Positions 30,827 to 64,000 of a stretch of 64,000 nt of DNA are shown in pieces. Each line of letters begins with the position of its first letter. The stretch's first letter is position 1. The translations under genes were made by a program, and so were the position numbers. The notes below the pieces were generated by a model that saw only the letters and a program-made list of their open reading frames with translations, ran no database searches and was not told the DNA's origin. The stretch comes from an uncultured virus (IMG/VR IMGVR_UViG_3300042914_003341). Lineage: Duplodnaviria > Heunggongvirae > Uroviricota > Caudoviricetes. The DNA lies in the IMG/VR virus record IMGVR_UViG_3300042914_003341; one strand, written 5' to 3'.

Positions 30827-31057
30827 TCACGACCATGCAGCAATTGTGTCTGCCAATTCAACGAACTCCCAGCAGTGCATGTATTCGAATGGATAATGCT
30901 TCAAAACAACGGTGTTCACGAACATGCTGTTGTAAACACCAGATTTGAACAAACTAGTGTACGTATGCACGTGCGCATCTACTTTCGAGATTGACTCCAA
31001 TATGCGTCGGTAAGATCGGCTGGTTTTGTTCCACTCATCATCCCATCGATTATCCAT
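30827..31057 (-). CDS. ELAD-motif family protein
   Basis: C-terminus EFVELADTIAAWS*. Confidence 0.75.
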   Translation of the reverse strand: MDNRWDDEWNKTSRSYRRILESISKVDAHVHTYTSLFKSGVYNSMFVNTVVLKHYPFEYMHCWEFVELADTIAAWS

Positions 31058-31259
31058 GATGATTACTCGCCGCCAAAACATCTGCTAATTCAACGAACAG
31101 ATCAAGCCTTGCGCTCATTGTGAATATGGGGATCGAATGCCCAAAAAAAGGATCAATTGTACGTTCTATGTGATAAATGTACATCTGGCCACCATACACA
31201 GAAGCCAGCGGGCCAAATGACCAACTTATCCTGCGATGTATTGGCTCGTTGTTGTTCAT
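31050..31259 (-). CDS. ELAD-motif family protein
   Basis: C-terminus LFVELADVLAASNHHG*. Confidence 0.75.
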   Translation of the reverse strand: MNNNEPIHRRISWSFGPLASVYGGQMYIYHIERTIDPFFGHSIPIFTMSARLDLFVELADVLAASNHHG

Positions 31260-31843
31260 GTCATTGGATGGAGGATATCAGCAATGTCAGCAAAATACAT
31301 GAGGCGTTTCGGCAACGCCTCATCAACGTCCCAACTGTTTCGTTGCATCAAATTCTCTTGTTCTTTGGATGCCTTGGTCCAATCCGTTTGGAGCTCGTAT
31401 GAGCCAAAACTCTCTTTGGCCATATAAAATGCCTCAGTCAGACCAAGCACGGAAAATTTGTACACCGTCTTAGCTAGTAGAACAATTGGCGCCTCCATAT
31501 AGGCAATGTTGTGAGAATTGCGCAGGTATGTTCCGAACTGATCGGAAGTTATTGCTGCAATGTTGTCGACGAATTTCTGGAGCATTTCTAGCCGTTCAGT
31601 GGCGGCAGTTTTGTCAAAAACTCGCATCGATGACACTTGATCTGTTGTTTGATCTGGTCGGAAATATTTGGCTACAAGCTGCGAATCAACAACGCTGATT
31701 GCCAGCTCGAAACTTTGTACCAATGAGGTTTCCGGCCCAACACCAAAACCAGACAACAGTTGCCTGTCTTTTGCAGGTAGGCTATACCACTGCATTGCAC
31801 TGATTGTTTTCTTTGCGCCCATGATGATTGATCTATCTCCCAC
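31256..31843 (-). CDS. ELAD-motif family protein
   Basis: C-terminus YFADIADILHPMT*. Confidence 0.75.
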   Translation of the reverse strand: MGDRSIIMGAKKTISAMQWYSLPAKDRQLLSGFGVGPETSLVQSFELAISVVDSQLVAKYFRPDQTTDQVSSMRVFDKTAATERLEMLQKFVDNIAAITSDQFGTYLRNSHNIAYMEAPIVLLAKTVYKFSVLGLTEAFYMAKESFGSYELQTDWTKASKEQENLMQRNSWDVDEALPKRLMYFADIADILHPMT

Positions 31844-31900
31844 TGTGGATGATGGTCGTTGGTTGAGTCAGATGGATGCTAGCTGATGGCTGGGAAGTTG

Positions 31901-32116
31901 TCAAGTGGCTGGGAGAATGAGCACGTCGCAAATCTCTGCGAATTGGAGTGATTCCGGCCTTGGCCCAAGTTTTTGGTGCCGAACAAACAAACCAATGTCA
32001 TCGATGCATTGCGGCGATTTATGCTCCCACCAGAGCATTTCTAACATGCCATAGAGGTCGTCCAATGGTTTTTTTTTCATCTCTTTTATTGTTAAATCAA
32101 GGCTCATAATGCTCAT
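31901..32116 (-). CDS. ELAD-motif family protein
   Basis: C-terminus QFAEICDVLILPAT*. Confidence 0.75.
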   Translation of the reverse strand: MSIMSLDLTIKEMKKKPLDDLYGMLEMLWWEHKSPQCIDDIGLFVRHQKLGPRPESLQFAEICDVLILPAT

Positions 32117-32343
32117 ACGTTGTCCACCAGGAGCAGATCGGATATGTCTGCGAGTTCTTTCAGAAGAAAGATCTTGCTACGCTGCCACGGCTCGATCCCA
32201 TCAACGATCAAATGATCAATTGATACAGCCAGGGCATTGATGTGTGAACCGTGTTTGACAGCTAGGTATGTTCGCCTGAGATAGCATCGAACAGATGACC
32301 AACAATTTGTTGGATTGATCAGCTCTGTTGGATTGATGATCAT
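32113..32343 (-). CDS. ELAD-motif family protein
   Basis: C-terminus LLKELADISDLLLVDNV*. Confidence 0.75.
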   Translation of the reverse strand: MIINPTELINPTNCWSSVRCYLRRTYLAVKHGSHINALAVSIDHLIVDGIEPWQRSKIFLLKELADISDLLLVDNV

Positions 32344-32540
32344 GGCTCGGCCACTAGCAGCATGTCCATGAGCTCGATTAGTTGAATCACATCACCGACG
32401 CCAAATATATCACCCGGGTCGTACATCAAGAAATCGTCCGTCAATCCTGCAAAATCGTTGATGCCATTATTGTTTCTCCAATATAGATCATGCAGGAGTT
32501 TAGCGATCCGGCGACCCGGAAAATTTTCGTCTAGGAACAT
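32340..32540 (-). CDS. ELAD-motif family protein
   Basis: C-terminus QLIELMDMLLVAEP*. Confidence 0.7.
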   Translation of the reverse strand: MFLDENFPGRRIAKLLHDLYWRNNNGINDFAGLTDDFLMYDPGDIFGVGDVIQLIELMDMLLVAEP

Positions 32541-38809: not shown

Positions 38810-39019
38810 TCACAGGAACATGTCGGCCAGATGAACAAATTTGTCAAAAAACGTTTGTCTATTGCAGATATAAGATACATCGATCTTTCGTCCGGACAGC
38901 AGCAGTTTGCTGACCATGTATACATCATAACATTTCTGTGATATGACATATTTGCCAACAGGATGACTTGGTTGTTTATAAAACGCGTTTGTGAATCCAA
39001 GAAGTGTTTGTGAACTCAT
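38810..39019 (-). CDS. ELAD-motif family protein
   Basis: C-terminus FFDKFVHLADMFL*. Confidence 0.75.
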   Translation of the reverse strand: MSSQTLLGFTNAFYKQPSHPVGKYVISQKCYDVYMVSKLLLSGRKIDVSYICNRQTFFDKFVHLADMFL

Positions 39020-39090: not shown

Positions 39091-39288
39091 TCACAGGAAC
39101 ATGTCAGCCAGACAAGTAAATTTATCCAAGAATACGTACTCCGCGAGGTGTATTTCAAATGAATGCGTGTCACCAATGCTACAACACAAAGTAGGAACAA
39201 CATACCGGTAGTTGTAGCTAGTCCAATCGTCATAGAACGAGTTGCTATAGTCAATCAGCGCATCAAGCGGAAGTTTGTTTGATGTCAT
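39091..39288 (-). CDS. ELAD-motif family protein
   Basis: C-terminus FLDKFTCLADMFL*; ATGA-coupled to the ligase gene. Confidence 0.75.
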   Translation of the reverse strand: MTSNKLPLDALIDYSNSFYDDWTSYNYRYVVPTLCCSIGDTHSFEIHLAEYVFLDKFTCLADMFL

Positions 39289-40364
39289 GACGTGCTTGAT
39301 GGTTTGTTGAACACTGGTGCGGCATAACGCCATTTGTGCGTTTGAGGCTGATGGAATCCTTGTCTGACATATTTTCCAACAAGCTTGTGGTAGTCTTTGA
39401 TGTGAAAACCATTCACTGGTCGTACGACATAGCCTTCACAGGGATCGCCGCAGAACTCTGTTGGAATCCATCCTTTGCTAGAGAATAGCTTCTCATCAAA
39501 CTTGCCGCGATACAACTCTGGAACAACTGGGAGGTTCAACAATTCAGACCATTCCTTGAGTTCATCCCAGCTTAAACAGTTGCCGTCACCTTTCCAGATA
39601 TTGAACACCTGATAGAACCACCTGAGATGATTGATCAGGTTTTGATAATGGATTGTGTGTTGCCTGACCAGGTTCTCGCCGCAAACTCTCCAGCCACTCG
39701 GAATCTCGCCGCCAGACAATTCAGCAGCCAATGCCTTGATTCTCTCGCTGTTCGGTGTGCTCAGTGGTTCAATCCTCCTGGCATGAACATAACCATCAGA
39801 ATAGATTGAGCAGTTCTCACCGTCTTGTTTCACAGTCACCACAACATCCCCACAGGATTTGATAGGAGAAAGATCTGTGATGATCCTGTCGTCCTTTGTG
39901 GCGCCAGTACTCCAAGGCAAGTGCCACGTCCTAGGAGGCTTCACATATTGTTTCTGAAACAAGTGAAGTACCGGCGTGATCACCTTCTGGACTGACTCAT
40001 CCCAGAACAATGGTCCAGGTGTCCTAGTACCGTCTGATAGAACGAGATTGCCCCACTTGTCCCAAGTTTCATCTGGATATAGCTGTGGAGGTAAGAGAAC
40101 CTCAGAGATCCCTGCCAACTCGCGGAGTTTCTCACAACTAATCTCCGTGCTCTCTGCCTTCATGTGACAGTCAGGGTCACAGAGAGTGACTCCGTTGTTC
40201 AGGTAATAACCGCCATCACTCCAGAGCCTTCTTTCAAGGATGTGGTGTGCGTCAAGCGGTGTGTGCTTTGGAGTTTTGCCGCAAACAACACACTCATAAC
40301 CATCCCGCTTGAACACGGCTTCTCTGAACTGATCTCGCGTGAATAGCTTTGGAGTTGCTGACAT
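39285..40364 (-). CDS. HNH domain fused to an RNA ligase (Rnl2-like nucleotidyltransferase)
   Basis: N-terminal CVVCG..LDAHHI..NGVTLC..CH; C-terminal PRTWHLPWS, KQDGEN, VCGEN, VFNIW, EGYVVR, KYVR. Confidence 0.85.
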   Translation of the reverse strand: MSATPKLFTRDQFREAVFKRDGYECVVCGKTPKHTPLDAHHILERRLWSDGGYYLNNGVTLCDPDCHMKAESTEISCEKLRELAGISEVLLPPQLYPDETWDKWGNLVLSDGTRTPGPLFWDESVQKVITPVLHLFQKQYVKPPRTWHLPWSTGATKDDRIITDLSPIKSCGDVVVTVKQDGENCSIYSDGYVHARRIEPLSTPNSERIKALAAELSGGEIPSGWRVCGENLVRQHTIHYQNLINHLRWFYQVFNIWKGDGNCLSWDELKEWSELLNLPVVPELYRGKFDEKLFSSKGWIPTEFCGDPCEGYVVRPVNGFHIKDYHKLVGKYVRQGFHQPQTHKWRYAAPVFNKPSSTS

Positions 40365-40372
40365 GATGTTTA

Positions 40373-40639
40373 TTATCTTTGGGATGGGTGAGGCTCTGAT
40401 GGATCTTTGTATTCTAGCCTGTCTAGAACATCATTCAATCCATGGTAGTCACCAATAATGGTGTTCATCTTACATTCAGGACAGCAAATCGCAGCATGCC
40501 TAGCACCATAACTGATTCCATCCCAAGGGAACAGATCGCTCTGTCTGAACTGCAAAACCGCATCGCACTGTTTGTTGTCACAGTCAACGCGATAGACCTT
40601 GACATCTTTCTGCTTCTTTCCAACTACTTCTACAGCCAT
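40373..40639 (-). CDS. Zinc-ribbon hypothetical protein
   Basis: CDNKQC...CPEC. Confidence 0.65.
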   Translation of the reverse strand: MAVEVVGKKQKDVKVYRVDCDNKQCDAVLQFRQSDLFPWDGISYGARHAAICCPECKMNTIIGDYHGLNDVLDRLEYKDPSEPHPSQR

Positions 40640-40826
40640 TGTTCCTCAATCCTTCTTGTTGGTCAGATCATCGATCAGGTTGCGCGCGGTAAAGGCATAG
40701 CCCACGGTGGTCTTTCTGGAACATGATGGACACTCGATCTGATATTCATGTTCTGAGATCTGAACTCCAGTTACCGCGCAGATTTCCATGACTGGTTTAT
40801 CCTGTCTATGTTACGAGACAATTGCT

Positions 40827-40900
40827 TGGTACGCCTGCTGTGATTTGAACACAGCCTAATCGGATATAAGCCGAAACCCGACAACCAATCGGACAGGCGC
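40827..40900 (-). tRNA. tRNA-Ile(TAT)
   Basis: GCGCCTG/CAGGCGT-A-CCA; TCGG CT TAT AT CCGA; CTGTG TTCAAAT CACAG. Confidence 0.8.
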
Positions 40901-40915
40901 ATGAGACAGAAAACC

Positions 40916-40990
40916 TGGAGCCCCCGGTCGGAATCAAACCGACATTATCCTCATTACAAGTGAGGTGCATCGTCATTATGCTACAGGGGC
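40916..40990 (-). tRNA. tRNA-Thr(TGT)
   Basis: GCCCCTG/CGGGGGC-T-CCA; CCTCA CT TGT AA TGAGG; GTCGG TTTGATT CCGAC. Confidence 0.9.
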
Positions 40991-41084
40991 TTGTGAGCGT
41001 GACACTAACTACTATCTCTAGTGTCTTTGCTCGGTGAGGCGATGAACTGAATCTATCAGAGGCCAGCTAAGTTGTCAAGGAGCT

Positions 41085-41276
41085 CTACCGGGTTTCGACG
41101 AGCCCTTGGGCTTCCAGGGCTACGAATACTCGGTAATATGATCCTTGAAGTCCAGTAAGCACACCTGTATCATACAGCCGCTGAAAAAAATCAGGAACGT
41201 CATCTGCTTCCATCGTCCCAGATTCGTAGTCAATGATCTGATCAATGATGTCGCAGCCGTCCGGAGTTTCTGACAT
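41085..41276 (-). CDS. Small hypothetical phage protein
   Basis: IIDYESG..FFQRLYDTG..LQGSYYR. Confidence 0.7.
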   Translation of the reverse strand: MSETPDGCDIIDQIIDYESGTMEADDVPDFFQRLYDTGVLTGLQGSYYRVFVALEAQGLVETR

Positions 41277-52104: not shown

Positions 52105-52183
52105 TGCCTAGCTCTGATCGATCATGGCATAACTAGCCTGACACAGCACGGATCAGTTGTCAAGTGCAACGTCAAGCGCAGCG

Positions 52184-53643: not shown

Positions 53644-53882
53644 TTTCTTCGCGCTAACACATCACATAGGTCGAAGAACCCTTCGAAATCTTCAATCATC
53701 GTGTATACAGAAATACTCCATCTGAAACGGCCATCAATTCGTTCAAAACCATTATACACACTGATTGGTATATCATGCTGCGCACGATTAACGCGATGAA
53801 GATATGCCATCTTCTCTAGAACTTTCCAGAGGACATGACGACCCAACCAGTCATCATATGTTTTGTATAGCTGATATTCCAT
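53640..53882 (-). CDS. ELAD-motif family protein
   Basis: C-terminus GFFDLCDVLARRK*. Confidence 0.75.
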   Translation of the reverse strand: MEYQLYKTYDDWLGRHVLWKVLEKMAYLHRVNRAQHDIPISVYNGFERIDGRFRWSISVYTMIEDFEGFFDLCDVLARRK

Positions 53883-53892
53883 CTAGCTTTGA

Positions 53893-54354
53893 TCAGACAG
53901 GGCCGTCAGCACGCCATTGATCTAGGAACTCTTCTGGGGTTTCGCCGTCAGTGTCCAAAGAACCTTGATTGATTGCCAGCTTGACGTCATCAACTGTGCA
54001 GCAATCCTTGCACACCGGGCCTAGATCGTCCAGGATCAAAACATTGTCCGGATAAAACATCATCCTGCACTTTTGGCAGCATTCTTCGGCAGACTCATCC
54101 TCTTCGCCAACGTTTTCAGCAACATCATCTAGCAGATCACCATATCTGCTCGGAGTCATGACGGTAATTGTCGCATATTGACTTGTGCAATGGCCATCTG
54201 CGGCAAGAATTAGCTGTTCTCCGTCAGTGCAATTGACAGTATAGAACTGCATAACGTTCGCTCTGTCTCCATACATGTCGACCTCTTTCACAGTGATTGA
54301 CTGAATGGTCTTACCGACTAGTGCTGTGAGGTTGTGCTCTGCTGTGTTTGACAT
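53893..54354 (-). CDS. Acidic zinc-finger-containing hypothetical protein
   Basis: CQKC..CKDC; start refined to MSNTAE. Confidence 0.65.
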   Translation of the reverse strand: MSNTAEHNLTALVGKTIQSITVKEVDMYGDRANVMQFYTVNCTDGEQLILAADGHCTSQYATITVMTPSRYGDLLDDVAENVGEEDESAEECCQKCRMMFYPDNVLILDDLGPVCKDCCTVDDVKLAINQGSLDTDGETPEEFLDQWRADGPV

Positions 54355-54376
54355 TGGTGGTTTGTTGTCCTTTGGT

Positions 54377-54682
54377 TCAGTAGTCGTTGGGGTCATAGGC
54401 ATCTGGAGAACCCAGAGCAGATCGGAGGGGTGAGCCGTTGTTGGTGATGCTGGGAATGTTCACGGAAGGGTTTGCGTTTGGATCGAACCAAACCGTGTAG
54501 GTCGGGCGCTCACCCTCAAACTCAAAGATGAGTTCATTGGAACCGTTCTCCTCGTTCTTCTCAAGGAGATCATCCCGGTACGCGCGAGCAGCGGTTTCAC
54601 TTGCGAAACGCATGTCGATCTTGCCAGAAAGAGGCATCTCGATTGTCAGAGTCCAGCGGCCAGTGTTGTTCTGAGTGGTCAT
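54377..54682 (-). CDS. Hypothetical protein
   Basis: Start refined to MTTQNN behind promoter at ~54729. Confidence 0.65.
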   Translation of the reverse strand: MTTQNNTGRWTLTIEMPLSGKIDMRFASETAARAYRDDLLEKNEENGSNELIFEFEGERPTYTVWFDPNANPSVNIPSITNNGSPLRSALGSPDAYDPNDY

Positions 54683-54765
54683 GATAGTACCTGTTCTTTC
54701 CGTCCCGGTGTGCTTGGGAACAGACCAGAGTCTAGCAAACGCCAGGAGTGATGTCAAGTGTAACG

Positions 54766-55056
54766 TCAAGCGTAACTGCAAGCAGCAATTGTGTCGGCCA
54801 AGTCACAGAAGGTTTCGCGGTCAAATTCCCAGATCCAATGACCAGACCCTAAGATCGACCACTGTTCCGGTACCATTGGTTGTATTTTCATGTGGAATTG
54901 GTAATAGTTGCGATTAAACCCCACCAACGTGTCACTGATGATGTCCGCCATGCGCACTGAAACGAATGACATCTCAGGCATTGATTTTCCATCCGGTTTG
55001 TACTTGCCGAAAACATTGGTGATCAACACGAGTAGCGGAATTGATATGACAATCAT
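54766..55056 (-). CDS. ELAD-motif family protein
   Basis: C-terminus TFCDLADTIAACSYA*. Confidence 0.75.
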   Translation of the reverse strand: MIVISIPLLVLITNVFGKYKPDGKSMPEMSFVSVRMADIISDTLVGFNRNYYQFHMKIQPMVPEQWSILGSGHWIWEFDRETFCDLADTIAACSYA

Positions 55057-55358
55057 CGTGCTAGCACCAAGGCGTCTGCGATGTCAAACACAAAGGTGTT
55101 GATGAATTTTAGCGTGCTAATTGTTTCTGTTATGTACTGGTCGGTTTCGAAATCGCGATATTCAACAGCAAACTCTGAGTAGTACAGCATTCCTGGCCAC
55201 CACCAACAGTTGGCACCTTCGTCCCACGCAGTGATATCATGAAGCATACACAAATCAAACATCCGAGCAAAACACAATCTGAATTCAACGTTGTTTGTCT
55301 CGTATCTCATATAATGTTCATCGATGTCTATGTTCCAGCGTTGATGTTTGATGGTCAT
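55053..55358 (-). CDS. ELAD-motif family protein
   Basis: C-terminus FVFDIADALVLAR*. Confidence 0.75.
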   Translation of the reverse strand: MTIKHQRWNIDIDEHYMRYETNNVEFRLCFARMFDLCMLHDITAWDEGANCWWWPGMLYYSEFAVEYRDFETDQYITETISTLKFINTFVFDIADALVLAR

Positions 55359-55621
55359 TGGAGTAGGTCTGCCATTTCAAAGAAGTATTGATCCAGATCC
55401 ACAAAAGTATACATTCCTCCAGAATCGTTATCCGTGGTTTTCCCAATCAATGACCAAGTCATAAGAGATATCGATATGCCTGCGTGGTAACCCAGGCCAA
55501 GTCCGTATGAATAGTGACGTCGCGAATGTTGTGCACACAACACATCATTAATTCTTTTCGCAGATTCTGCAAAGAGTTTGTTCTTCGTGTAAAGACACAG
55601 TGGTTTTCTGTTAGCACTCAT
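55355..55621 (-). CDS. ELAD-motif family protein
   Basis: C-terminus YFFEMADLLQ*. Confidence 0.75.
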   Translation of the reverse strand: MSANRKPLCLYTKNKLFAESAKRINDVLCAQHSRRHYSYGLGLGYHAGISISLMTWSLIGKTTDNDSGGMYTFVDLDQYFFEMADLLQ

Positions 55622-55884
55622 TGATGAATGATTAACACGTCTCCGATCTCCGCGATCTCAATGATTTCTTCTGCATACACTCCTGCCAGACTAGAAGCTG
55701 TGTGTTTGCGAACCATGATCATGAGCAGCCCTGTAAAGAACGGATTCACAGGAACACTGTTCAACTTTTCTTGAAGATCCGCGGACCAAACCCAGTACGC
55801 GTCATGTTTGGCCCATTTTGCAACAACTAGTTCTTCATCCGTCGGCAATCCGGATTGTAGTGTGGGCTGTTTAGATGAACACAT
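55618..55884 (-). CDS. ELAD-motif family protein
   Basis: C-terminus EIAEIGDVLIIHQ*. Confidence 0.75.
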   Translation of the reverse strand: MCSSKQPTLQSGLPTDEELVVAKWAKHDAYWVWSADLQEKLNSVPVNPFFTGLLMIMVRKHTASSLAGVYAEEIIEIAEIGDVLIIHQ

Positions 55885-56380
55885 CAGCTATCTCTGTGAA
55901 TTGAATCAGTGTGTTTGTTTTGTCGGCATCAACCTCTGCATATCGATCATACCCGGAAAACCAATTCAACAAATCGTACAATGGATTGCTCAATAAATCA
56001 AACAGCGCACCATGTGAATCATTTGGTAATTCAATATGATACTGAGTCCTAGCAATCAAAGCAGTGCTTTCCGTACGCGTCACTGGTTTGGATTTTTCAC
56101 CTTTCCAAGCACTAAGAACAGTTTCTTCTCCAACCCAGCTATAGTTGATTCGCTCCAGCATCTCTTTCGTGCGGCGCCCTTCGGGGTACAATTCGCCATT
56201 CAAACAATCTTCGATAAGCTCTCTAAGTCCTGGGAAAATAGCACGCCCCAGAGTGTCGGCTGAAATCGATGTCGTCAAACGATCAATCAATGCATTTGTT
56301 TTGTGTTCCCGATGCAAATTTGCTGCGATCTGCTTTAGTTGCGCAGTGAAATTCTCCGGCGCGGCTGGGGATTCACTCAT
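55871..56380 (-). CDS. ELAD-motif family protein
   Basis: C-terminus QFTEIADVFI*. Confidence 0.75.
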   Translation of the reverse strand: MSESPAAPENFTAQLKQIAANLHREHKTNALIDRLTTSISADTLGRAIFPGLRELIEDCLNGELYPEGRRTKEMLERINYSWVGEETVLSAWKGEKSKPVTRTESTALIARTQYHIELPNDSHGALFDLLSNPLYDLLNWFSGYDRYAEVDADKTNTLIQFTEIADVFI

Positions 56381-57038
56381 GATTGTTTTCCGCGGTTGTT
56401 GCGATCATGTCAGCCAGTTCGATTGTGCGTGAAAGATGTCTGTAACCTCTTGAACTTGAAATCCAAACAGCACCACTCCCGCGCATAGCTCTGAGGTTGT
56501 TACGGAGCCAGCCAACATTGTCTGAAAGTGCGTTGTTAATGATATTACACACTGGAGAGCTGTTCCACAGTCCAGGTGGTACATCGACTTGACTCAGTTG
56601 TTTGATACAGTGACTGTGCAAACGCCAACACGGATAGTCATATCCCGAGAGACTGTTTTTGGATCGCTGTTGCGCAACAAAGAACAACTCTGGGATGTTT
56701 GTCTCGTCTGTTGTCGTCATCTCGTCCAAGAGCTTCTTTAGGTTTCTGAAACGAGTTCTCTCACTGCTTGTGAACTTGAACGATGATGATGAACGTTTCT
56801 TTGGCCCAATGAACCTTTTGTGACCATTATCAGTGGCAGTGAGGCGGATCAATTCTGAGATGGTTCTTGCAAAGAACCCAGCAAACCTTTTGTTGCGTTT
56901 CGATGATGAACTAAAGGATTTGATCGTGTTTTCAATGCTGACCCAGATTTTCATGATATATGTTTCACGCTTAGCTGCTAGATGTAATTCATTCAGCTTG
57001 TCGATTGAAGGAACTGTCTCAAACTCTGGAATCGTCAT
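56373..57038 (-). CDS. ELAD-motif family protein (long subfamily)
   Basis: N-terminal PSIDKLNE; C-terminal TIELADMIATT. Confidence 0.75.
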   Translation of the reverse strand: MTIPEFETVPSIDKLNELHLAAKRETYIMKIWVSIENTIKSFSSSSKRNKRFAGFFARTISELIRLTATDNGHKRFIGPKKRSSSSFKFTSSERTRFRNLKKLLDEMTTTDETNIPELFFVAQQRSKNSLSGYDYPCWRLHSHCIKQLSQVDVPPGLWNSSPVCNIINNALSDNVGWLRNNLRAMRGSGAVWISSSRGYRHLSRTIELADMIATTAENNHE

Positions 57039-57565
57039 TGTTTCTCTTCTTCTGTGCTCCTCGCCATAGCATGACACAACTGATCGGCGATGTCAATGAA
57101 AGCTACGACCTCTTTTTTTGAGGAAGTAAAGCTGTGGCTGTGACTGGACCACAGTCGAGCATGTGGTCCGGTGAATTCATGTATAAAACGTATTGGTTTT
57201 GGTTGTGGCGCAGTTAGCCACCACACCCTCCATGCCGCGGCTGCTAAGCGTCGATTTTGCTGAGCTAGCTCTTTCTTGTAATGTACCAGTATTGTTGATG
57301 GCACTGTTGGTTCCTTGCAGAAAGTTGTACAGAACGATTTCAGCCTCGATTTATCGCTGCGTGTGAACGTTTCGTTCCTGATCCAGAGCATGACAACGCC
57401 TGTCAGCTTGCTGTAGCGCGATTGGTACAGATGTTTGTCAGCATAGTTTTTGACGCTGGCCTTCATTGCATCTTCTATCATGTGACAAAGAAGTTTGAAC
57501 TTAACCTTTGTCAGTTCTGCGTTTAGCTCAGCCATGCTCGGCGGCTCTACCCATTGCATACTCAT
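57035..57565 (-). CDS. ELAD-motif family protein (long subfamily)
   Basis: N-terminal PSMAELNA; C-terminal AFIDIADQLCHA. Confidence 0.75.
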   Translation of the reverse strand: MSMQWVEPPSMAELNAELTKVKFKLLCHMIEDAMKASVKNYADKHLYQSRYSKLTGVVMLWIRNETFTRSDKSRLKSFCTTFCKEPTVPSTILVHYKKELAQQNRRLAAAAWRVWWLTAPQPKPIRFIHEFTGPHARLWSSHSHSFTSSKKEVVAFIDIADQLCHAMARSTEEEKQ

Positions 57566-58116
57566 GATTGGGTATTTTCACTTTCGTTGTGCTGGAGCAA
57601 CATGTCCGCGATGTCAAGAAAACCATCAGCATCATTCTGATAATCAACGAAGATTCCCACGTTGGCGTACCAACGAGGCTGAGTTACCATCGCGATAAAA
57701 TTTGGCAGTTTGGGCAAACATTTACCCAACTCTATTGGGCGGTAGATCTGGTAGCTCTGCATCCACTTGTTTCGTTCTTCGTCAGCCAGTTGTTTGCAGT
57801 GTTTAAAGAACACTTCAGATGTGCTGGGATTGTCCAGTGGCACTGGTTCTATCACCTTTGCGAACCTCTTGAAGTATGTCCAGTCGTTTTTTGTAAAAGA
57901 TGTGCAGCCGTTCTTACCAACCGCAACATCCATCACTCTGTCCAGACAGTTGGCAATCATCACATAACCAAACTGCTTGTAGATGTTGCTTGGTGTTATG
58001 TCCTTGATGGCTTTAGCAACAGAACCAGCAAACAGACGCGCGTGAGTTGCAGCATAATGTGCATTCCTGTTCGATTTTAGTTCTTCAGTGGTTGGCCGGT
58101 GGAGATAGTATGTCAT
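57562..58116 (-). CDS. ELAD-motif family protein (long subfamily)
   Basis: N-terminal PTTEELKS; C-terminal GFLDIADMLLQH. Confidence 0.75.
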   Translation of the reverse strand: MTYYLHRPTTEELKSNRNAHYAATHARLFAGSVAKAIKDITPSNIYKQFGYVMIANCLDRVMDVAVGKNGCTSFTKNDWTYFKRFAKVIEPVPLDNPSTSEVFFKHCKQLADEERNKWMQSYQIYRPIELGKCLPKLPNFIAMVTQPRWYANVGIFVDYQNDADGFLDIADMLLQHNESENTQS

Positions 58117-58649
58117 GTGTTGTGTCCTGCTAGCATATCAGCAACCTCGATGAAGTTTGCGTTCATGTACCAATGTTGAGCATCCGGATGATCAACTGAC
58201 CAACTTGGTGAATTTTCATCATCAAAAACACAGGCTTCTATTAAGCTTCCAGGATCGCAAAATCCCACGGTGGGATGTTCGAGCAAGCATATAAGCTTGC
58301 CGCATCGGTTAACGTCTTTGTGAAATTTTGCAGCAGCACGGGTATATGAGTCAATGATTGCAATGCTGTTTGGTTTGTAGGCTTGGTGCAGGTTCTTGCA
58401 CAGTTTCTTGAAACGTTTGCTCTCTTTCTGTATGTTTACAGCGTCACCCTCGATCAACAGAACTATAGACGAAACAAGGACGTTGTAGTGCGCCTTGAAC
58501 ATAGCAGGCTCTGTGTTTTTCTTGACTGCATCAGCAAGCCATTGATGCACCATACACAGCCAAGCATCATAGTATTCCATGCGATGAGATATCTCAAGCT
58601 GTTCTAGCGTTGGCAGATCTTGCCAAACGAATTGTTCTTCTGATAACAT
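58113..58649 (-). CDS. ELAD-motif family protein (long subfamily)
   Basis: N-terminal PTLEQLEI; C-terminal NFIEVADMLAGHNT*. Confidence 0.75.
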   Translation of the reverse strand: MLSEEQFVWQDLPTLEQLEISHRMEYYDAWLCMVHQWLADAVKKNTEPAMFKAHYNVLVSSIVLLIEGDAVNIQKESKRFKKLCKNLHQAYKPNSIAIIDSYTRAAAKFHKDVNRCGKLICLLEHPTVGFCDPGSLIEACVFDDENSPSWSVDHPDAQHWYMNANFIEVADMLAGHNT

Positions 58650-58662
58650 GTTATGATTTAAA

Positions 58663-59757
58663 TCACTTCATTGAGAGATACTTGTCTGAGACGTTCTTCA
58701 GAGAAATACGGCCGACCTGCGGATGGATGCGCTCCTTTGGAGTCTTGACGACAAGACCTTCACGGATCTTTTGTCCTGGAAAGATCTTCTCATCTGATTC
58801 CTCTGAGAGTTTCCAGAGGAGCTCCTTGTTGTGTTTGCCGCGATAAACCACGGGCACAGTTTCACCGATGCCTGCCATGAGCTCAGTATCGTCGATCAGA
58901 CGCGCGTTGTCGACCCACTTCCCATCAACAAGGATATCAAACACGGCAAACCCGAACACTCCCTCCGGTTTTGCATATGCAAACTGAGCACCCTGACAAC
59001 GTGTGCCATAGACCTCGCCATACAGAACCTTGCCAGGATTGTTCCTGCACCAAGTCTCAATCCATGGGTTGTCCTCCAGCGTCTGCCACCAGTTGCTGTT
59101 TGGTGCAAGAATATCCTTCGGAACTTCCTCGCCAGTCACTTCATCCTTGACAGTGACAGTCTTGATGAACTTCCCTGGACGCTTCTTCCAGGTTGTCCTG
59201 CTTCCACAGAACATGTCATTCCCATCAAACACATACCTTGCGTTCTGGCCGTGAATCTTGACGGAATAGATCACGTCGTCTTCACCCTCGACCAGAACAG
59301 AGTTGTTCTTGCGAATGTTCTCCAGATCATAGACTGGAGCATTCACCTCTGGTCCTGTCTCACACAGACCAGACATTGCATCAGTGGGGCCACCGAGAGA
59401 ACCACGAGGAGGAGGCGGCTCATACCTTTCAACACCGAAATGATCCCAGGCATTGTCTCCTTCAACCATACCTTCGGGAGCTGGGAGGAGAAGACCATAG
59501 GACTGTTGGCCGCGAAACCTTCGCGTGGTGATGCGCTCGAAGTCGCGACCCTTTCCAGTGTCAAGGAATGAGAACTCAATCCTGTTCAGGGGAACCTTGG
59601 TGTCAGGCTCAATGAAGGCAGCAAGGTCACCCTCCTGAAACTGACCACGCTTGACCACACAGGGATAGTCCCAGATCATGGTCAGAACAATAGAGTCCGC
59701 ACACTCAATCGGAGTGACAGGACCAACCTTCACAATGCGTACTTCGTGTGTGCTCAT
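58663..59757 (-). CDS. RNA ligase, DRB0094 (Rnl5) family
   Basis: N-terminal OB-like PI..AD.I..CVV.RGQF..GDLA.FIEPD..RFRGQ.S.GLL; KIHGQN, LYGEVYG, VFDI, REGLVVK, LK.VS..YL. Confidence 0.9.
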   Translation of the reverse strand: MSTHEVRIVKVGPVTPIECADSIVLTMIWDYPCVVKRGQFQEGDLAAFIEPDTKVPLNRIEFSFLDTGKGRDFERITTRRFRGQQSYGLLLPAPEGMVEGDNAWDHFGVERYEPPPPRGSLGGPTDAMSGLCETGPEVNAPVYDLENIRKNNSVLVEGEDDVIYSVKIHGQNARYVFDGNDMFCGSRTTWKKRPGKFIKTVTVKDEVTGEEVPKDILAPNSNWWQTLEDNPWIETWCRNNPGKVLYGEVYGTRCQGAQFAYAKPEGVFGFAVFDILVDGKWVDNARLIDDTELMAGIGETVPVVYRGKHNKELLWKLSEESDEKIFPGQKIREGLVVKTPKERIHPQVGRISLKNVSDKYLSMK

Positions 59758-59794
59758 CTTGATGCCTTGACCCTAACATGTTGTGTTGTGGCTG

Positions 59795-60136
59795 TCAAGA
59801 GCATTGGACAAGTGCATCAGCTATGTCAAAGATCATCTGAAAAGCCTCATGTCGCGCTGAGCTTGTCGAACCTTTGTACAATCCACCAACAGACAGGTCA
59901 AAAGCATCAGAGAAATTTTCGAAATCATCATGATCTATTGCCATGTAAATTGCTTTGCGCAAAACGTACGACAGACTTGGCGCTCCGTAAGGACTAAACT
60001 TGATCTGATCAAAGTTTTGTCGGTTGTTGAACAAGACGGTATGAACACGATTTGCTAGTATCTGTGTGTATCTGATACTCATCGCCCATGCCTCCCTATA
60101 ATCGATCCAGTGGCAGTTCTCATTGTTTTGCGGCAA
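59795..60136 (-). CDS. ELAD-motif family protein
   Basis: C-terminus MIFDIADALVQCS*. Confidence 0.75.
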   Translation of the reverse strand: MPQNNENCHWIDYREAWAMSIRYTQILANRVHTVLFNNRQNFDQIKFSPYGAPSLSYVLRKAIYMAIDHDDFENFSDAFDLSVGGLYKGSTSSARHEAFQMIFDIADALVQCS

Positions 60137-60151
60137 AGACCTGTTGTGGAC

Positions 60152-60430
60152 TCAGGGTGCCCCAGAATTAATCTGTGGAGCTCCTGATGAGAGACACAAC
60201 ACATCACCAAGCTCTGCAAATGAAATGATGTTTTCCAATAGAAGTAAACGTTTCAATGGGTTGAAGGAATATACCCTGATGGCATCATCGGTCAGATCAA
60301 CAATCTGATTATCGACAGGCATGCAAAGTAAGCCAGATCTGGCGTTTAACCGATCTTGCCAGTACCGGTGCCACCGTGGCACACGTGCGCACACATCCTC
60401 TGCTAGCAGAAATGTAGATATATCGCTCAT
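60152..60430 (-). CDS. ELAD-motif family protein
   Basis: VPRWHRYW..SFAELGDVLCLS. Confidence 0.75.
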   Translation of the reverse strand: MSDISTFLLAEDVCARVPRWHRYWQDRLNARSGLLCMPVDNQIVDLTDDAIRVYSFNPLKRLLLLENIISFAELGDVLCLSSGAPQINSGAP

Positions 60431-60618
60431 TGTTGTTGAAGCATGTCTCCCAGGACTATGAGCGTTTCATTGCCCTTGAAATATGTGAACGCATGACTCA
60501 CGTTGTCTTCCATGACCAAAGCGTCAAGAGCAATGATGAAATAAGAAACAGTTGGCTTTGGCTTATGAGCATCGACACGAACCAAGTCGTCGAACAGCTT
60601 GTTGTATTTGTTTAGCAT
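60427..60618 (-). CDS. ELAD-motif family protein
   Basis: C-terminus TLIVLGDMLQQQ*. Confidence 0.7.
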   Translation of the reverse strand: MLNKYNKLFDDLVRVDAHKPKPTVSYFIIALDALVMEDNVSHAFTYFKGNETLIVLGDMLQQQ

Positions 60619-60890
60619 TGCAGTGCGTCTCCTATGTCAAAGAAAAGTTCGAACATTTTCCAGCCGCCATACTCTGTGTGGTCCGTACTAATATCTTCTA
60701 TATCATCATATAGAAGTTTGCCACCGATTGCATAACGCACCGAATGACAAATCACGTATGCTATTTGACTGCCGTAGCCAACACGACCAGGGCTGCTCAA
60801 TAAAGCATCCATTTCTTTTACAGAATCTGAGATCCTTTGTGTGAGATCGAGCAGGTCATGGGCCACGTTGCACCAAAAACATATCTCCAA
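60612..60890 (-). CDS. ELAD-motif family protein (start uncertain)
   Basis: C-terminus LFFDIGDALQC*. Confidence 0.7.
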   Translation of the reverse strand: MEICFWCNVAHDLLDLTQRISDSVKEMDALLSSPGRVGYGSQIAYVICHSVRYAIGGKLLYDDIEDISTDHTEYGGWKMFELFFDIGDALQC

Positions 60891-61068
60891 GTTCCGCTAT
60901 GAGCAAACCATTGGCTAGTTTGTCTTCTGGCTTTCTGTATCTCCTGATGAAATCATCCACCAGATCCACAAACAACACAGTGCCGTAGTTTGTACCTATT
61001 GTACGCCAATATTCACCCCAGCTTGGCAGCTTTCTTGAAACATCAATACGACCCGGGGTGCTACTCAC
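60856..61068 (-). CDS. ELAD-motif family protein
   Basis: LPSWGEYW..LIAELGDMFLV. Confidence 0.75.
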   Translation of the reverse strand: MSSTPGRIDVSRKLPSWGEYWRTIGTNYGTVLFVDLVDDFIRRYRKPEDKLANGLLIAELGDMFLVQRGP

Positions 61069-61540
61069 TGATCATATCTCCTAACTGAGCAAGCTCGATC
61101 AGCCGTTGAATTTCTTCGATTGAAACTTGGTAACCTAGCCGCGGCGGATCTTGGTGAAAATTAAACCAGATAGGATGACGGCTGCCAATGTAGGAGGTTG
61201 GTGTTTTCGCGAACAGCAAACTGATCAAATCGTCCACTGGTTCGAACCGGTGTTCATCCGAATCCGGATCCCGCGCGCCTAGAATATGATGTGCAAGTAT
61301 CGCAGGAGCCCTCTGAAGGGAACAAACAATAACATTCACCATCCAGCTCTTGCGAGTTTTGATGTCGGGAAGAATGTCGTGGTGATACATATTCCAGTTG
61401 TAATGGTTGAGATCTCTGTATTCCGGGGGGCGCATTTGCAACTCAAACTGAATCTTTTCCATGGCCGCAATATAACCATCAGAGAACCTGTCTCGATCAT
61501 CTTTTTCGTCAATCAGGCACACGGCATTCTTATCAGACAT
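61061..61540 (-). CDS. ELAD-motif family protein
   Basis: C-terminus LIELAQLGDMISE*. Confidence 0.75.
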   Translation of the reverse strand: MSDKNAVCLIDEKDDRDRFSDGYIAAMEKIQFELQMRPPEYRDLNHYNWNMYHHDILPDIKTRKSWMVNVIVCSLQRAPAILAHHILGARDPDSDEHRFEPVDDLISLLFAKTPTSYIGSRHPIWFNFHQDPPRLGYQVSIEEIQRLIELAQLGDMISE

Positions 61541-61543
61541 TGG

Positions 61544-61774
61544 TCACTGTACCTTTGTTGGCTGTGAGACGGAGAACTGATCGGCCAATGCGATCATCAA
61601 TTCAAAGTCGAATGATCTGATATCATCAAAGAACGTTGGCAGAGCTAGCCGTCCGCAATCTATGGCATTAAACAATTGATATTTGATTGCGTACGTCATC
61701 GCGCGCATCTTTTCGCCGCCAACACACGCATCATGAACGTTGCATGCAATGTCATGGACAGAAGAACGACTCAT
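61544..61774 (-). CDS. ELAD-motif family protein (probably leaderless)
   Basis: LMIALADQFSVS; ATG 6 nt after the -10 box. Confidence 0.7.
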   Translation of the reverse strand: MSRSSVHDIACNVHDACVGGEKMRAMTYAIKYQLFNAIDCGRLALPTFFDDIRSFDFELMIALADQFSVSQPTKVQ

Positions 61775-61817
61775 ATCTGAACCCTAGCAGGCAATGCATC
61801 CTGTGTCAAGTATAGCG

Positions 61818-62048
61818 TCAAGTCGCGAATCCGTCTGCCAGATCGATCAGGAGATCCAAGTCAGGGATGACAGTGGATTGTCCCGTGAAGTTCGGTAAGA
61901 AATATTTTGATGCGGCCGTTGGTTCATCGCCGCATAGGATTCTGAACGTGTTGTTGAGAAGATATAGAACATCATTCAAATATGCTGTCATGCCGCCATA
62001 TGACGCGATGGCATTGCTTCGTATCTTTCCGTAATCAATCTTCTTCAT
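61818..62048 (-). CDS. ELAD-motif family protein
   Basis: Start refined to MKKIDY; C-terminus LLIDLADGFAT*. Confidence 0.75.
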   Translation of the reverse strand: MKKIDYGKIRSNAIASYGGMTAYLNDVLYLLNNTFRILCGDEPTAASKYFLPNFTGQSTVIPDLDLLIDLADGFAT

Positions 62049-62344
62049 AGCAAGAAGGTATCTCCAAGCTCGGCAAGGAGAGAAAGACGACAATAACGCG
62101 GGTTTCCGTTTATGAGAGAAAGATGACAATAACGCGGGTTTCCGTTTATAGGATCGCGCAGCACCGGCCAAAAACGCAAAACATCATCAACAGACTCAAC
62201 CAGTTCATCAATCGATTCTGCAATGTCCCCGTTGTGATTGTGATGGTGCCCATTGAAGTTCGTGCTATCACCCCAGTATATACGCCATCTTGGCAACCGA
62301 TTGCTAATATTGAAATCATCTAAGCGATCTAAGCGATTAGTCAT
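62045..62344 (-). CDS. ELAD-motif family protein with an internal 12-aa duplication
   Basis: LPRWRIYW..(INGNPRYCxLSL)x2 LAELGDTFLL*. Confidence 0.75.
   Translation of the reverse strand: MTNRLDRLDDFNISNRLPRWRIYWGDSTNFNGHHHNHNGDIAESIDELVESVDDVLRFWPVLRDPINGNPRYCHLSLINGNPRYCRLSLLAELGDTFLL
62078..62149. repeat. 36-bp tandem duplication (1 mismatch)
   Basis: gagagaaaga(c/t)gacaataacgcgggtttccgtttat twice. Confidence 0.95.
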
Positions 62345-62562
62345 TGAGCACCTAACATGTCTGCCAGCTCAAAGAACAGATCAAACGCTGCATTGCCGCC
62401 AAACCTTTTATAATCACAGACTGCGTATTGTATATGCCTCGTTACGAAACTGTTTTCTAAAGCATCTAAGACTCCGTGACGAGTAACATAAACAACCTGC
62501 ACCATTATTCGATCGTAGTCTGGGAAGGCTTTATTTAACGCGAGGCTTGTAGTTCTAGTCAT
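62341..62562 (-). CDS. ELAD-motif family protein
   Basis: C-terminus LFFELADMLGAQ*. Confidence 0.75.
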   Translation of the reverse strand: MTRTTSLALNKAFPDYDRIMVQVVYVTRHGVLDALENSFVTRHIQYAVCDYKRFGGNAAFDLFFELADMLGAQ

Positions 62563-62798
62563 GACTCTGATGAATTGGTTTTTTGGTTGATGATAATGAA
62601 CATGTCTCCCAGGTCTGCGAGCAAGGCGATATCCTCTGGCGCCTTGATCATCAGGCGCACATCAAAACAGCTTTTGAGCTTGTAGTACATGTAAGCATAG
62701 TAGCAAACATCGTCTGCTGGATGGCCGATATGGTCTGGCCAGTCTTCCGGGACAAGGCCCATGTCTGTTGGTATGTTGTATAACTGTTGCCATTTCAT
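62559..62798 (-). CDS. ELAD-motif family protein
   Basis: LLADLGDMFIII near the C-terminus. Confidence 0.75.
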   Translation of the reverse strand: MKWQQLYNIPTDMGLVPEDWPDHIGHPADDVCYYAYMYYKLKSCFDVRLMIKAPEDIALLADLGDMFIIINQKTNSSES

Positions 62799-63697
62799 TG
62801 GCTTAGCAGCTTGGTCAATCTGTCATGAGTTGTTTGCGGCGAAAACCAGAACGTCGTTGTAGGTTCTTTGCAGTAATCCTCCAGAAGATCGACCACTGGC
62901 TCATACTGCGAGCGTTGATAGGTATAAAACCTTGCGCCGGTCAGTGTGTCGACATGTTCTTCTAGACCTTTGCAACCAAACCTGGGATTGTTCTCTCGTT
63001 CTGCCGCCAGCTCCTGCTCGGACATGGTGACATCTGCCTTGATATGTTTGAACAACCTGCCACAACGCCTGTGTGTTGGCAGCGACAGCCATGGAGTTGC
63101 ACCTTCGTTTCTTCCATCTTCTGTGTGAGCAATGAGCTGTGCAGAGTTCATGCCACTTAGCTCCTTGTTTGATGAATATTGGCGTGCCCACTGAGCCACT
63201 GAGTTCCTCCTGGCATCACACATCCTCCAGCAGATGTTTGCCGCAACATCTTCGCAAGTTGGCAGCGAAAAAGCTCTGGCATCGAACGTCGCCATATCTC
63301 CGGATATCTTGCCAGAAGCTTGAGCAAACTTTGTCGTCATCATCGACGCCATCAGGGTCGAGAACTTCAAGATTCTTCCGCCGCTCAGTTGGTTCACCTT
63401 GCTGGGTTCGAACACCATGGTGAGTTCATCTGAGAATGTGTAAAGCAGCGCTGGAGCATAGACCTTCGCCATGGCCAAAGCTGTGTCAGTCATTGCTTTC
63501 TCAAAGGCTGGATGCCATGTGTCCTTGTTGCCTTGAGCAGTTGGATAGTTTTCCTTGACCCAAGTAGAGAACCCATGGCCATCCAAACGAACAACCGCCC
63601 ATTCAAGTGGAGTTAGTTGTTTTTTGCCGCGAAACCTCTCCTCGATGTCCTTGAAGTGGTTCCCAGAATCATTGATACCTCTGATGTTCATTTGCAT
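62795..63697 (-). CDS. Thg1-like tRNA(His) guanylyltransferase / 3'-5' polymerase (TLP)
   Basis: VVRLDGHGFS, YTFSDELT, GRILKFS..AS, FDARAF, WR..DARRNSV. Confidence 0.9.
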   Translation of the reverse strand: MQMNIRGINDSGNHFKDIEERFRGKKQLTPLEWAVVRLDGHGFSTWVKENYPTAQGNKDTWHPAFEKAMTDTALAMAKVYAPALLYTFSDELTMVFEPSKVNQLSGGRILKFSTLMASMMTTKFAQASGKISGDMATFDARAFSLPTCEDVAANICWRMCDARRNSVAQWARQYSSNKELSGMNSAQLIAHTEDGRNEGATPWLSLPTHRRCGRLFKHIKADVTMSEQELAAERENNPRFGCKGLEEHVDTLTGARFYTYQRSQYEPVVDLLEDYCKEPTTTFWFSPQTTHDRLTKLLSQ

Positions 63698-63921
63698 TTT
63701 GTCTCCGATGCGAAGATATCAGCCAACTCGCACATTGTAAAGAGAACAGCGCGATTGTAGCCCTCCACACACTCATATCCTTGGTCTTGATAATAGCAAT
63801 TGCTGTTTATTCGACTCGCTATTTTTAACACAATCATCGAAATCGACCCAACATGCTGTTTGGTATTCACGAATAATCCATAAGCCCGTGGGATAACCAC
63901 AAGTCTTGGTCGCTGTATCAT
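63688..63921 (-). CDS. ELAD-motif family protein; the frame stays open upstream through a second motif (FELADHF) at the window edge
   Basis: C-terminus TMCELADIFASETKCK*; promoter at ~63935-63963. Confidence 0.7.
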   Translation of the reverse strand: MIQRPRLVVIPRAYGLFVNTKQHVGSISMIVLKIASRINSNCYYQDQGYECVEGYNRAVLFTMCELADIFASETKCK

Positions 63922-64000
63922 TGCGACTGAACGAACCATAGCAGCAGCAGTCGTGGTTGTCAAGTGGGCTTGGAAATGATCTGCTAATTCAAACAAAACA

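Follow-up and report, generated by a model that had tools for sequence, protein, structure and literature searches.

Forty-nine small genes with a common C-terminal peptide

The DNA analysed here (the window: 64,000 nucleotides of an uncultured virus of the Caudoviricetes, IMG/VR record IMGVR_UViG_3300042914_003341) carries, on its minus strand between 30,827 and 63,996, 49 open reading frames (ORFs) of 63-234 residues (median 88) that end in the same kind of short peptide, here called the tag. The tag follows the pattern [FL]-x-[ED]-[LI]-[AGC]-D-h-[LFI], where h is a hydrophobic residue, and is located 1-14 residues before the stop. Its carriers make up 49 of the ~85 genes of the right arm (more than half of the genes in the right 33 kb of the window) versus none of the 68 genes of the left arm; a codon-score gene call gave 168 genes in the window, 152 of them on the minus strand (84 in the right arm and 68 in the left). 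The members bear out an original prediction, made from the sequence, of about 50 small minus-strand ORFs with a common C-terminal motif. They were curated on the core [LIMV][AGCM]D and scored, leave-one-out (LOO), with an 11-column matrix of 17.7 bits. Each is given below with its coordinates, strand, length in amino acids (aa), tag, number of residues in the tail after the tag, and LOO score.

30827-31081 (-), 84 aa, FVELADTI (30842-30865), tail 4, 14.2 bits
31050-31259 (-), 69 aa, FVELADVL, tail 7, 24.6 bits
31256-31843 (-), 195 aa, FADIADIL, tail 4, 20.6 bits
31901-32116 (-), 71 aa, FAEICDVL, tail 5, 20.7 bits
32113-32343 (-), 76 aa, LKELADIS then DLL, tail 8, 11.9 bits
32340-32540 (-), 66 aa, LIELMDML (Met at the small-residue position), tail 5, 14.2 bits
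33418-34020 (-), 200 aa, LIDLADML, tail 4, 23.5 bits
35174-35371 (-), 65 aa, MADLGDVL, tail 4, 17.0 bits
35368-35862 (-), 164 aa (start uncertain), FIELADVL, tail 6, 19.6 bits
38810-39019 (-), 69 aa, FVHLADMF, tail 1, 15.8 bits; tag kept in orthologs P0030 and P0035
39091-39333 (-), 80 aa, FTCLADMF, tail 1, 15.5 bits; paralog of 38810-39019
46657-46890 (-), 77 aa, weak member, FSGLCDFF, tail 5, -0.2 bits
46887-47159 (-), 90 aa, weak member, LAMLGDIL, tail 6, 7.0 bits
47634-47909 (-), 91 aa, FCELCDML, tail 4, 20.9 bits; orthologs P0015 and P0016
47924-48160 (-), 78 aa, FVSLADAL, tail 1, 15.5 bits
48250-48543 (-), 97 aa, FAELCDML, tail 9, 17.5 bits; paralog of 47634-47909
49866-50183 (-), 105 aa, LVDLCDAL, tail 2; not picked by the gene caller and so outside the predicted gene set
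50180-50437 (-), 85 aa, FLDVADAI, tail 6, 14.3 bits
50434-50664 (-), 76 aa, FIEIADAI, tail 12, 14.5 bits; tandem paralog trio
50642-50881 (-), 79 aa, FIELADLL, tail 12, 19.9 bits; same trio
50868-51119 (-), 83 aa, LIELADIL, tail 10, 17.1 bits; same trio
52184-52402 (-), 72 aa (or 62), FAELADMF, tail 2, 24.0 bits; ortholog P0026
52365-52664 (-), 99 aa, DYELADVL, tail 9, 11.6 bits
52661-52873 (-), 70 aa, TADIADML, tail 2, 18.7 bits
52870-53115 (-), 81 aa, FAELGDVL, tail 6, 23.1 bits
53103-53378 (-), 91 aa, LSDIADVF, tail 6, 13.4 bits; paralog of 53371-53643
53371-53643 (-), 90 aa, FTDLADFI, tail 8, 13.7 bits
53640-53882 (-), 80 aa, FFDLCDVL, tail 4, 21.7 bits
54766-55056 (-), 96 aa, FCDLADTI, tail 6, 14.2 bits
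55053-55358 (-), 101 aa, VFDIADAL, tail 4, 8.8 bits
55355-55621 (-), 88 aa, FFEMADLL, tail 1, 9.4 bits
55618-55884 (-), 88 aa, IAEIGDVL, tail 4, 18.3 bits; orthologs P0032 and P0034
55871-56380 (-), 169 aa, FTEIADVF, tail 1, 21.1 bits
56373-57077 (-), up to 234 aa (start uncertain), TIELADMI, tail 9, 17.6 bits
57035-57565 (-), 176 aa, FIDIADQL, tail 13, 11.5 bits; paralog of 58113-58649
57562-58116 (-), 184 aa, FLDIADML, tail 11, 19.5 bits
58113-58649 (-), 178 aa, FIEVADML, tail 5, 13.6 bits; orthologs P0001-P0004, distant homologs P0005 and P0008 tagged
59795-60136 (-), 113 aa, IFDIADAL, tail 4, 12.5 bits
60152-60430 (-), 92 aa, FAELGDVL, tail 14, 20.6 bits; orthologs P0029, P0031 and P0033
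60427-60618 (-), 63 aa, LIVLGDML, tail 3, 14.8 bits
60612-60890 (-), 92 aa, FFDIGDAL, tail 2, 21.1 bits; paralog of 62341-62562
60856-61068 (-), 70 aa, IAELGDMF, tail 6, 18.4 bits; paralog of 60152-60430
61061-61540 (-), 159 aa, LAQLGDMI, tail 2, 15.2 bits
61544-61774 (-), 76 aa, MIALADQF, tail 9, 12.9 bits
61818-62171 (-), 76-117 aa (start uncertain; overlaps the next ORF), LIDLADGF, tail 2, 17.2 bits
62045-62344 (-), 99 aa, LAELGDTF, tail 2, 19.3 bits; paralog of 60152-60430; 36-nucleotide duplication (x2)
62341-62562 (-), 73 aa, FFELADML, tail 3, 26.5 bits; orthologs P0021-P0023
62559-62798 (-), 79 aa, LADLGDMF, tail 12, 19.6 bits
63688-64000 (-), cut by the window edge, MCELADIF (63712-63735), 18.6 bits; second tag-like LFELADHF (63973-63996)

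Chance does not account for the tag. A strict regular expression matched the C-termini of 24 of the 168 predicted genes and no internal site, versus a mean of 0.07 matches (maximum 2) in 500 shuffled proteomes, and a relaxed expression run over all 612 six-frame ORFs of at least 40 aa gave 33 matches, 32 of them within 14 aa of the stop in minus-strand ORFs between 31,050 and 63,996; the remaining match is internal and falls in a left-arm metallophosphatase (9632-10381). With the LOO matrix, 46 of the 168 genes reached at least 8 bits, all within 15 aa of the C-terminus and all among the 84 right-arm minus-strand genes, with none among the 68 of the left arm; 1.2% of shuffled proteins reached the same score, and the two members marked weak in the list fell below it. 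In the raw six-frame translation (scored with the full matrix rather than leave-one-out), all 49 matches of at least 12 bits lie on the minus strand, no more than 15 aa from the next stop. The enzymes of the window and the genes of its left arm are without the motif, as had been noted, and the C-terminal positional bias that was proposed as a check is borne out. A search with reduced-alphabet 5-mers pointed to the same end of the proteins: the best C-terminal 5-mer occurs in 28 of 48 members, whereas none is shared by more than 3 of 48 within the first 25 residues. No second common C-terminal motif was seen among the non-members, where the most widespread reduced 5-mer is found in 4 of 102.

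The tag extends over ~11 residues with the consensus h-x-x-F-h-[ED]-L-[AGC]-D-h-[LF]. Its composition in the 49 members, numbered relative to the Asp (0), is as follows.

Position -8: mostly hydrophobic
Position -5: F27, L12 (F/L 39/49)
Position -4: hydrophobic
Position -3: E24, D17 (E/D 41/49)
Position -2: L34, I12 (L/I/V/M 49/49)
Position -1: A31, G11, C6, M1 (A/G/C 48/49)
Position 0: D 49/49
Position +1: M16, V11, A7, I5
Position +2: L29, F12, I7

The tail after position +2 varies in make-up as well as in length. Nearly every position of the motif shows synonymous codon variation (six codons for Leu, four for Ala and two for Asp), which implies selection on the peptide. At 100 degrees the hydrophobic moment of the tag is 1.39 (shuffles, 0.86), at 160 degrees it is 0.61, and no proline occurs between positions -9 and +2 in any member. 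The amphipathic acidic helix that had been proposed is thus borne out as a pattern in the helical register, and the peptide is probably helical. The members themselves are mostly acidic, with a median isoelectric point (pI) of 5.4.

As the original prediction had also described, the genes form translationally coupled runs: a downstream gene was called for 47 members, and 25 of these run into its start, with an overlap of exactly 4 nucleotides in 14 cases. The family likewise runs to the right edge of the window, where the last ORF (63688-64000) is cut. In this ORF LFELADHF and MCELADIF stand in one frame, ~80 residues apart and with no stop between them, and an in-frame ATG follows 11 codons past LFELADHF; to judge from this arrangement, the ORF looks like two family members fused through loss of a stop. 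Apart from LFELADHF, no internal copy of the tag was seen. At 62078-62149, where 61818-62171 and 62045-62344 overlap in different frames, a 36-nucleotide unit occurs twice (97% match); because the duplication gives a repeated peptide in both frames, the start of 61818-62171 is uncertain.

Bodies, paralogs and distant homologs

Once the tag had been removed, 7 of the 1176 member pairs matched at E<=0.01, giving four groups that hold 10 proteins and leaving 39 singletons, while none of the 4312 member-versus-control pairs did so. Full-length phmmer searches linked a few further member pairs. Alignments of the subfamilies show real full-length homology within a group; between subfamily profiles, hhalign aligned only 11 and 15 columns, those of the tag. 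Variants of the tag (ELGD, ELCD, DIAD and HLADMF-stop) track the paralog groups. The description of the members as otherwise unrelated therefore stands in so far as their bodies are mostly unalignable, but was overstated, as 10 of the 49 fall into paralog groups even without the tag. On the strength of these comparisons the members appear to form a single family, enlarged by tandem duplication, which diverged rapidly while the tag was held fixed. That the tag was pasted onto foreign proteins is disfavoured, since paralog groups exist and the variants of the tag follow them. None of the 49 members matched a Pfam family above the cut-off (four weak, unrelated matches had E values of 0.024-0.038), none matched PHROGs at E<=0.001 (two weak matches, E 0.0095 and 0.007), and a full-text literature search found no published account of such a tag family.

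Orthologs with 63-99% identity upstream of the tag were found for seven members, and all keep the tag. A profile search of 1.84 billion representatives with the group of 58113-58649 returned two true distant homologs, both from other metagenomes: P0005 (E 2.5e-16, 29% identity), which ends in LVDMADLF, and P0008 (E 7e-5, 22-27% identity), which ends in FLEIADMF. Two other matches of this search are repeat proteins. Over 19 ortholog or homolog pairs, which are not independent of one another, the six core positions of the tag are identical in 106 of 114 cells, compared with 1319 of 1878 positions (70%) upstream of it. As judged from these alignments, the family is narrow and evolves fast, the tag being its one strongly constrained patch.

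In IMG/VR the back-translated pattern F-x-E-L-A-D-M-[LF] was found at 40 loci, with one match each, which by estimate is about the number expected by chance; none of the 40 carries two or more C-terminal tags. Seven of the matches lie near the end of an ORF, and five of these belong to one small ORF family: an ORF of 42-59 aa ending in ...QFPFLELADMF plus 7 residues, present once per contig in L002, L014, L017, L020 and L030, which are unrelated viral IMG/VR contigs of 7.7-47.5 kb. A further contig, L036, has a 43-aa ORF with NVNFAELADML (22.6 bits on the tag matrix). These tag-like ends are single occurrences outside this phage lineage.

Two kinds of gene in the window end in sequences that are reminiscent of the tag. 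The paralogs 2361-2918 (-) and 41464-42063 (-), one in each arm (BLASTP E 3e-9 over 64 residues), end in the weak tag-like ...LADIALL and ...SLADAITAE, below threshold, and possibly represent a remote branch of the tagged family. Within a run of members, the 87-aa non-member 49606-49869 (-) ends in ...LIWCCDLMVSHRLDSGTETC and may carry a decayed tag.

Candidate roles of the tag

Structures of two members were predicted with AlphaFold2 (AF2), both at low confidence (predicted template modelling score, pTM, 0.34). The model of 58113-58649 has a mean predicted local distance difference test score (pLDDT) of 41.5 and is unusable. That of 60152-60430 (mean pLDDT 60.2; ~71 over residues 41-80) shows three helices (19-31, 41-55 and 58-82), the third of which includes the tag at 71-78. 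In both models the tag lies in a helix, at low to moderate confidence. The latter model, the only one searched, gave no Foldseek match at E<=0.001, and its best VIA-align match (4mk6_A, Z 6.3, root-mean-square deviation 3.7, 77 residues aligned) is among generic helical bundles. The ESM Atlas gave no usable match for one member or for a 532-aa neighbour.

We tentatively favour, giving it a chance not far short of even, the reading that the tag is a docking helix shared by a lineage-specific library of probably early proteins, through which all would bind one partner while their bodies give them their individual functions. Docking on otherwise variable bodies is suggested by the selection at the peptide level, the strict C-terminal place, the amphipathicity, the fact that the tag is the only shared element, and its retention in homologs. 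From the sequences we infer a helical state, docking and a single partner: the hydrophobic face of the helix (F/L, L/I, the small residue, h and L/F), together with the invariant Asp, would fit one common partner, which could be a phage or host hub not seen in this window. The individual activity or target of each member would be supplied by its divergent body, and the library would have expanded by tandem duplication and fast divergence, with strong purifying selection on the tag only. Gene context alone suggests early expression and a role in host takeover or anti-defence.

Several points weigh against this reading. As the variants of the tag track the paralog groups, the tag appears to be inherited with the gene rather than to be modular. 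Proline and glycine together are only slightly enriched just before the helix (0.14-0.16 versus 0.08 in the bodies), as are polar residues, so that a flexible linker is not evident. The long last helix of the 60152-60430 model extends a hydrophobic segment of the body, which is what a structural three-helix unit would show, and the model leans towards a tag helix that is packed rather than free. No partner of the tag was identified among the candidate readers looked at, which were window neighbours: the 12 unannotated ones have no Pfam match above the cut-off, and the 532-aa protein has no sequence match in the PDB. The evidence for docking comes from sequence throughout, and none of it bears on the timing of expression.

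A bolder form of the docking reading, which we regard as possible but doubtful, is that a single kind of C-terminal helix connects at least 49 different mini-proteins to one reader, such as a ring of the clamp type, a protease or unfoldase, or the surface of a capsid or compartment. If so, one machine would be directed against dozens of different host targets, or charged with them, and bacterial viruses would have their own equivalent of the F-box/PRANC or PIP-box networks. In large phages small orphan genes number in the hundreds and have mostly obscure roles, and here half of one such region is tied together by one peptide. The tag, compared with its Asp mutant, would offer a single handle with which to fish for the partner and to assign a common pathway to ~50 orphans. 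Should the partner prove to be a hub (clamp, protease or capsid surface), the members would form the largest client set of a docking tag described in a phage and a model for accessory gene libraries that diversify around one kept interface, and the tag could serve as a portable targeting peptide.

The analogy drawn earlier with the ankyrin/PRANC proteins of poxviruses, which extends to F-box and SOCS-box proteins, holds for this logic: many variable proteins with one conserved C-terminal element, expanded in a large virus. PRANC, F-box and SOCS-box modules, at ~40-50 residues, are folded domains and connect their carriers to the eukaryotic ubiquitin system, whereas the present element is a putative helix of 8-11 residues in a phage. 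The analogy does not extend to recognisable domains, as Pfam gave neither a PRANC/F-box-like C-terminal domain above the cut-off nor ankyrin, kelch or leucine-rich repeat (LRR) N-terminal domains in any of the 49 members. Nor is the tag present on the pentapeptide-repeat proteins of the left arm.

The alternative that survives best, possible although we think it on balance unlikely, is that the members are one fast-diverging paralog family of small helical proteins in which the C-terminal helix is structural, or a surface for self- or mutual pairing, with no separate reader. The paralog groups with full-length similarity, the variants of the tag that follow them and the tandem, coupled runs of genes all agree with such a family, as does the three-helix unit predicted for 60152-60430, with the tag in its last long helix at a pLDDT of ~71, and a small residue beside the invariant Asp would suit tight helix-helix packing. 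However, both models are of low confidence, the lengths of the members span the whole range of 63-234 aa, and profile comparisons align the tag alone. A run of 8-11 residues is kept nearly invariant while the bodies drop to 22-29% identity, and an invariant Asp of the exposed type would be unusual in a purely structural helix. Even if the helix is merely structural, the genes would be a clean case of a tandem gene family of a phage that has diverged to an extreme.

There is a slim chance that the tag is a sorting signal that docks on the prohead interior, the scaffold, the portal or a compartment made by the phage, so that small effectors are packed and delivered with the DNA. The internal proteins of T4 and the cargo of encapsulins likewise share a short peptide among unrelated small proteins that are sorted into a capsid-type shell, and the strict terminal placement in 49 of 49 members and the small, mostly acidic cargo would fit this logic. 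Encapsulin cargo-loading peptides are C-terminal; the capsid-targeting sequence of T4 internal proteins is N-terminal and is removed by the prohead protease, whereas the N-termini of the members share nothing. The tagged genes, moreover, lie amid genes of nucleotide metabolism and RNA repair in long coupled runs, with no sign of a late or structural context, and capsid, portal and protease genes are absent from the window.

Hardly a better prospect is a signal for degradation or turnover, or an adaptor tether, for a host or phage AAA+ protease, by which the removal of early proteins would be timed or targets delivered; this too we consider quite improbable. The tail of SspB and the ssrA tag are short C-terminal peptides that are read by one machine, and the location and the hydrophobic, acidic character of the present tag are compatible with such a tether or degron. 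However, the motif does not resemble these peptides, and ssrA-type degrons have fixed residues at the extreme C-terminus; the tail beyond the tag is variable in both length and make-up, so that the free end is not the signal, and the tag does not qualify as a degron of this type. The window holds no protease gene for which it might be meant.

A slimmer chance still attaches to a clamp-binding (PIP-like) peptide, the partner being a phage or host sliding clamp. In T4 a hydrophobic, acidic C-terminal epitope docks unrelated proteins (gp43, gp55, gp33) on the gp45 clamp and is interchangeable between them (PMC2988020). The tails of gp43 (...ASLDFLFG) and gp55 (...PSLDFLYEAND) place 1 and 4 residues after the motif and share with the present tag a position near the C-terminus, the spacing h4-x-x-h7-h8 with an acidic residue, and the order Leu, Asp and two hydrophobic residues; the T4-flavoured genes of the window (RnlA-like, DenV-like, dCMP deaminase and EndoVII/Srd-like) also suit a T4-type clamp. 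In contrast to the T4 epitope, an obligatory small residue stands here between Leu and Asp (A, G, C or M), with F/L and E/D upstream, and neither the sequence S-L-D-F-L-F/Y nor a Leu directly before the Asp occurs in any of the 49 tags. The T4 epitope is found on a few replication and transcription proteins, whereas the tag is found on ~50 orphan mini-proteins and on no enzyme of the window, including those that act on DNA (DenV-like, ligases). Given the different sequence and the orphan carriers, the tag does not belong to the T4 clamp-motif class, and no sliding-clamp gene was seen in the window, which also lacks genes for the DNA polymerase and the late transcription factors that carry the epitope in T4.

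That the repeated element works at the level of DNA or RNA, as a promoter/stem-loop (PeSL-like) cassette, a ribosome-binding signal or a recombination site, has a negligible chance: it lies just upstream of the start of the next gene, and in the hyperplastic regions of T4-type phages the junctions between many small variable genes do hold repeated regulatory cassettes (PMC4122927, PMC2839356), but those PeSL cassettes are intergenic DNA, whereas the present element is coding, always in frame and on the coding strand, and varies synonymously in a manner that contradicts such a role. The tag is, in addition, equally present in members that overlap the next gene and in those followed by gaps of 20-104 nucleotides, and neither promoter-like sites (33 versus 28.2 +/- 5.8 in shuffles) nor terminator-like sites (19 versus 15.2 +/- 3.9) are enriched, so that the conserved promoter and stem-loop of the PeSL type were not found.

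The phage and the other genes of the window

Near-identical DNA in sequencing runs labelled lake water, together with the presence of members in public protein collections (9 of the 10 looked up, on contigs of up to 151,347 bp), establishes that the source is a real and recurrent uncultured freshwater phage of ~151 kb or more. Contigs from four further lake-water runs differ from positions 44,001-64,000 of the window by a single change (A>G at 54872). The population is thus nearly clonal across these runs and offers no polymorphism for analysis; none of the 24 runs is listed as an RNA run. The phage is T4-flavoured and without a close cultured relative. No close relative was found among 50,697 phage records with the 532-aa protein, a 12-kb stretch, P0005 and P0008 as queries, nor did IMG/VR return a match to window proteins and subfamily alignments; an exact 51-mer from the end of the window had no match in species genomes, and a metagenome scan returned only a 1.1-kb contig (L001). 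Two stretches were reported in IMG/VR for relatives of P0008 and one for P0005, whose loci were not returned and were not used; a related phage may be present there.

The recognisable genes are phage-like and include the T4-flavoured set named above, and the enzymes have no more than 44% identity to proteins of scattered phages. The principal features outside the tagged family are the following.

9632-10381 and 46070-46654: two metallophosphoesterases
14850-15995: RNA-ligase-type gene, RnlA-like
39285-40364: RNA-ligase-type gene
58663-59757: RNA-ligase-type gene
16957-17031, 27367-27445 and 40916-40990: three tRNAs (Arg-CCT, Leu-TAA and Thr-TGT)
20035-20364, 21461-22012, 22885-23679 and 25366-25824 (-): four pentapeptide-repeat proteins
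47105-47605: T4 DenV-like glycosylase
48509-49571: dNMP phosphatase and dCMP deaminase
62795-63697: Thg1-like tRNA-His guanylyltransferase

The RNA-repair kit is unusually rich. Of its three RNA-ligase-type genes, one is RnlA-like, another has an HNH-like N-terminus and the third a PHA02142 OB fold; the Thg1-like gene, two metallophosphoesterases and three tRNAs complete it. In the left arm, one pentapeptide-repeat protein has DUF5758 fused to it, and a 15-nucleotide unit repeated 19.5 times (23245-23537) makes up its gene. The paralogs 10424-10654 / 13066-13323 (-) are a phrog_8466 pair (E 5e-25), and the adjacent paralogs 13364-14242 / 14239-14796 (-) are endonuclease-VII/HNH/Srd-like. Only one gene is clearly on the plus strand, an HNH endonuclease at 27498-28334 (+) (phrog_10822, E 3e-51); as it adjoins the tRNA-Leu, it is probably a mobile insertion.

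The right arm is AT-richer, as had been noted, though modestly so, with a guanine plus cytosine (GC) content of 44-48% compared with 47-59% in the left arm and 58% at the left end (1-12000 versus 30000-64000). Within the right arm, an island of 53% GC at 40001-42000 surrounds the tRNA-Thr and 41464-42063.

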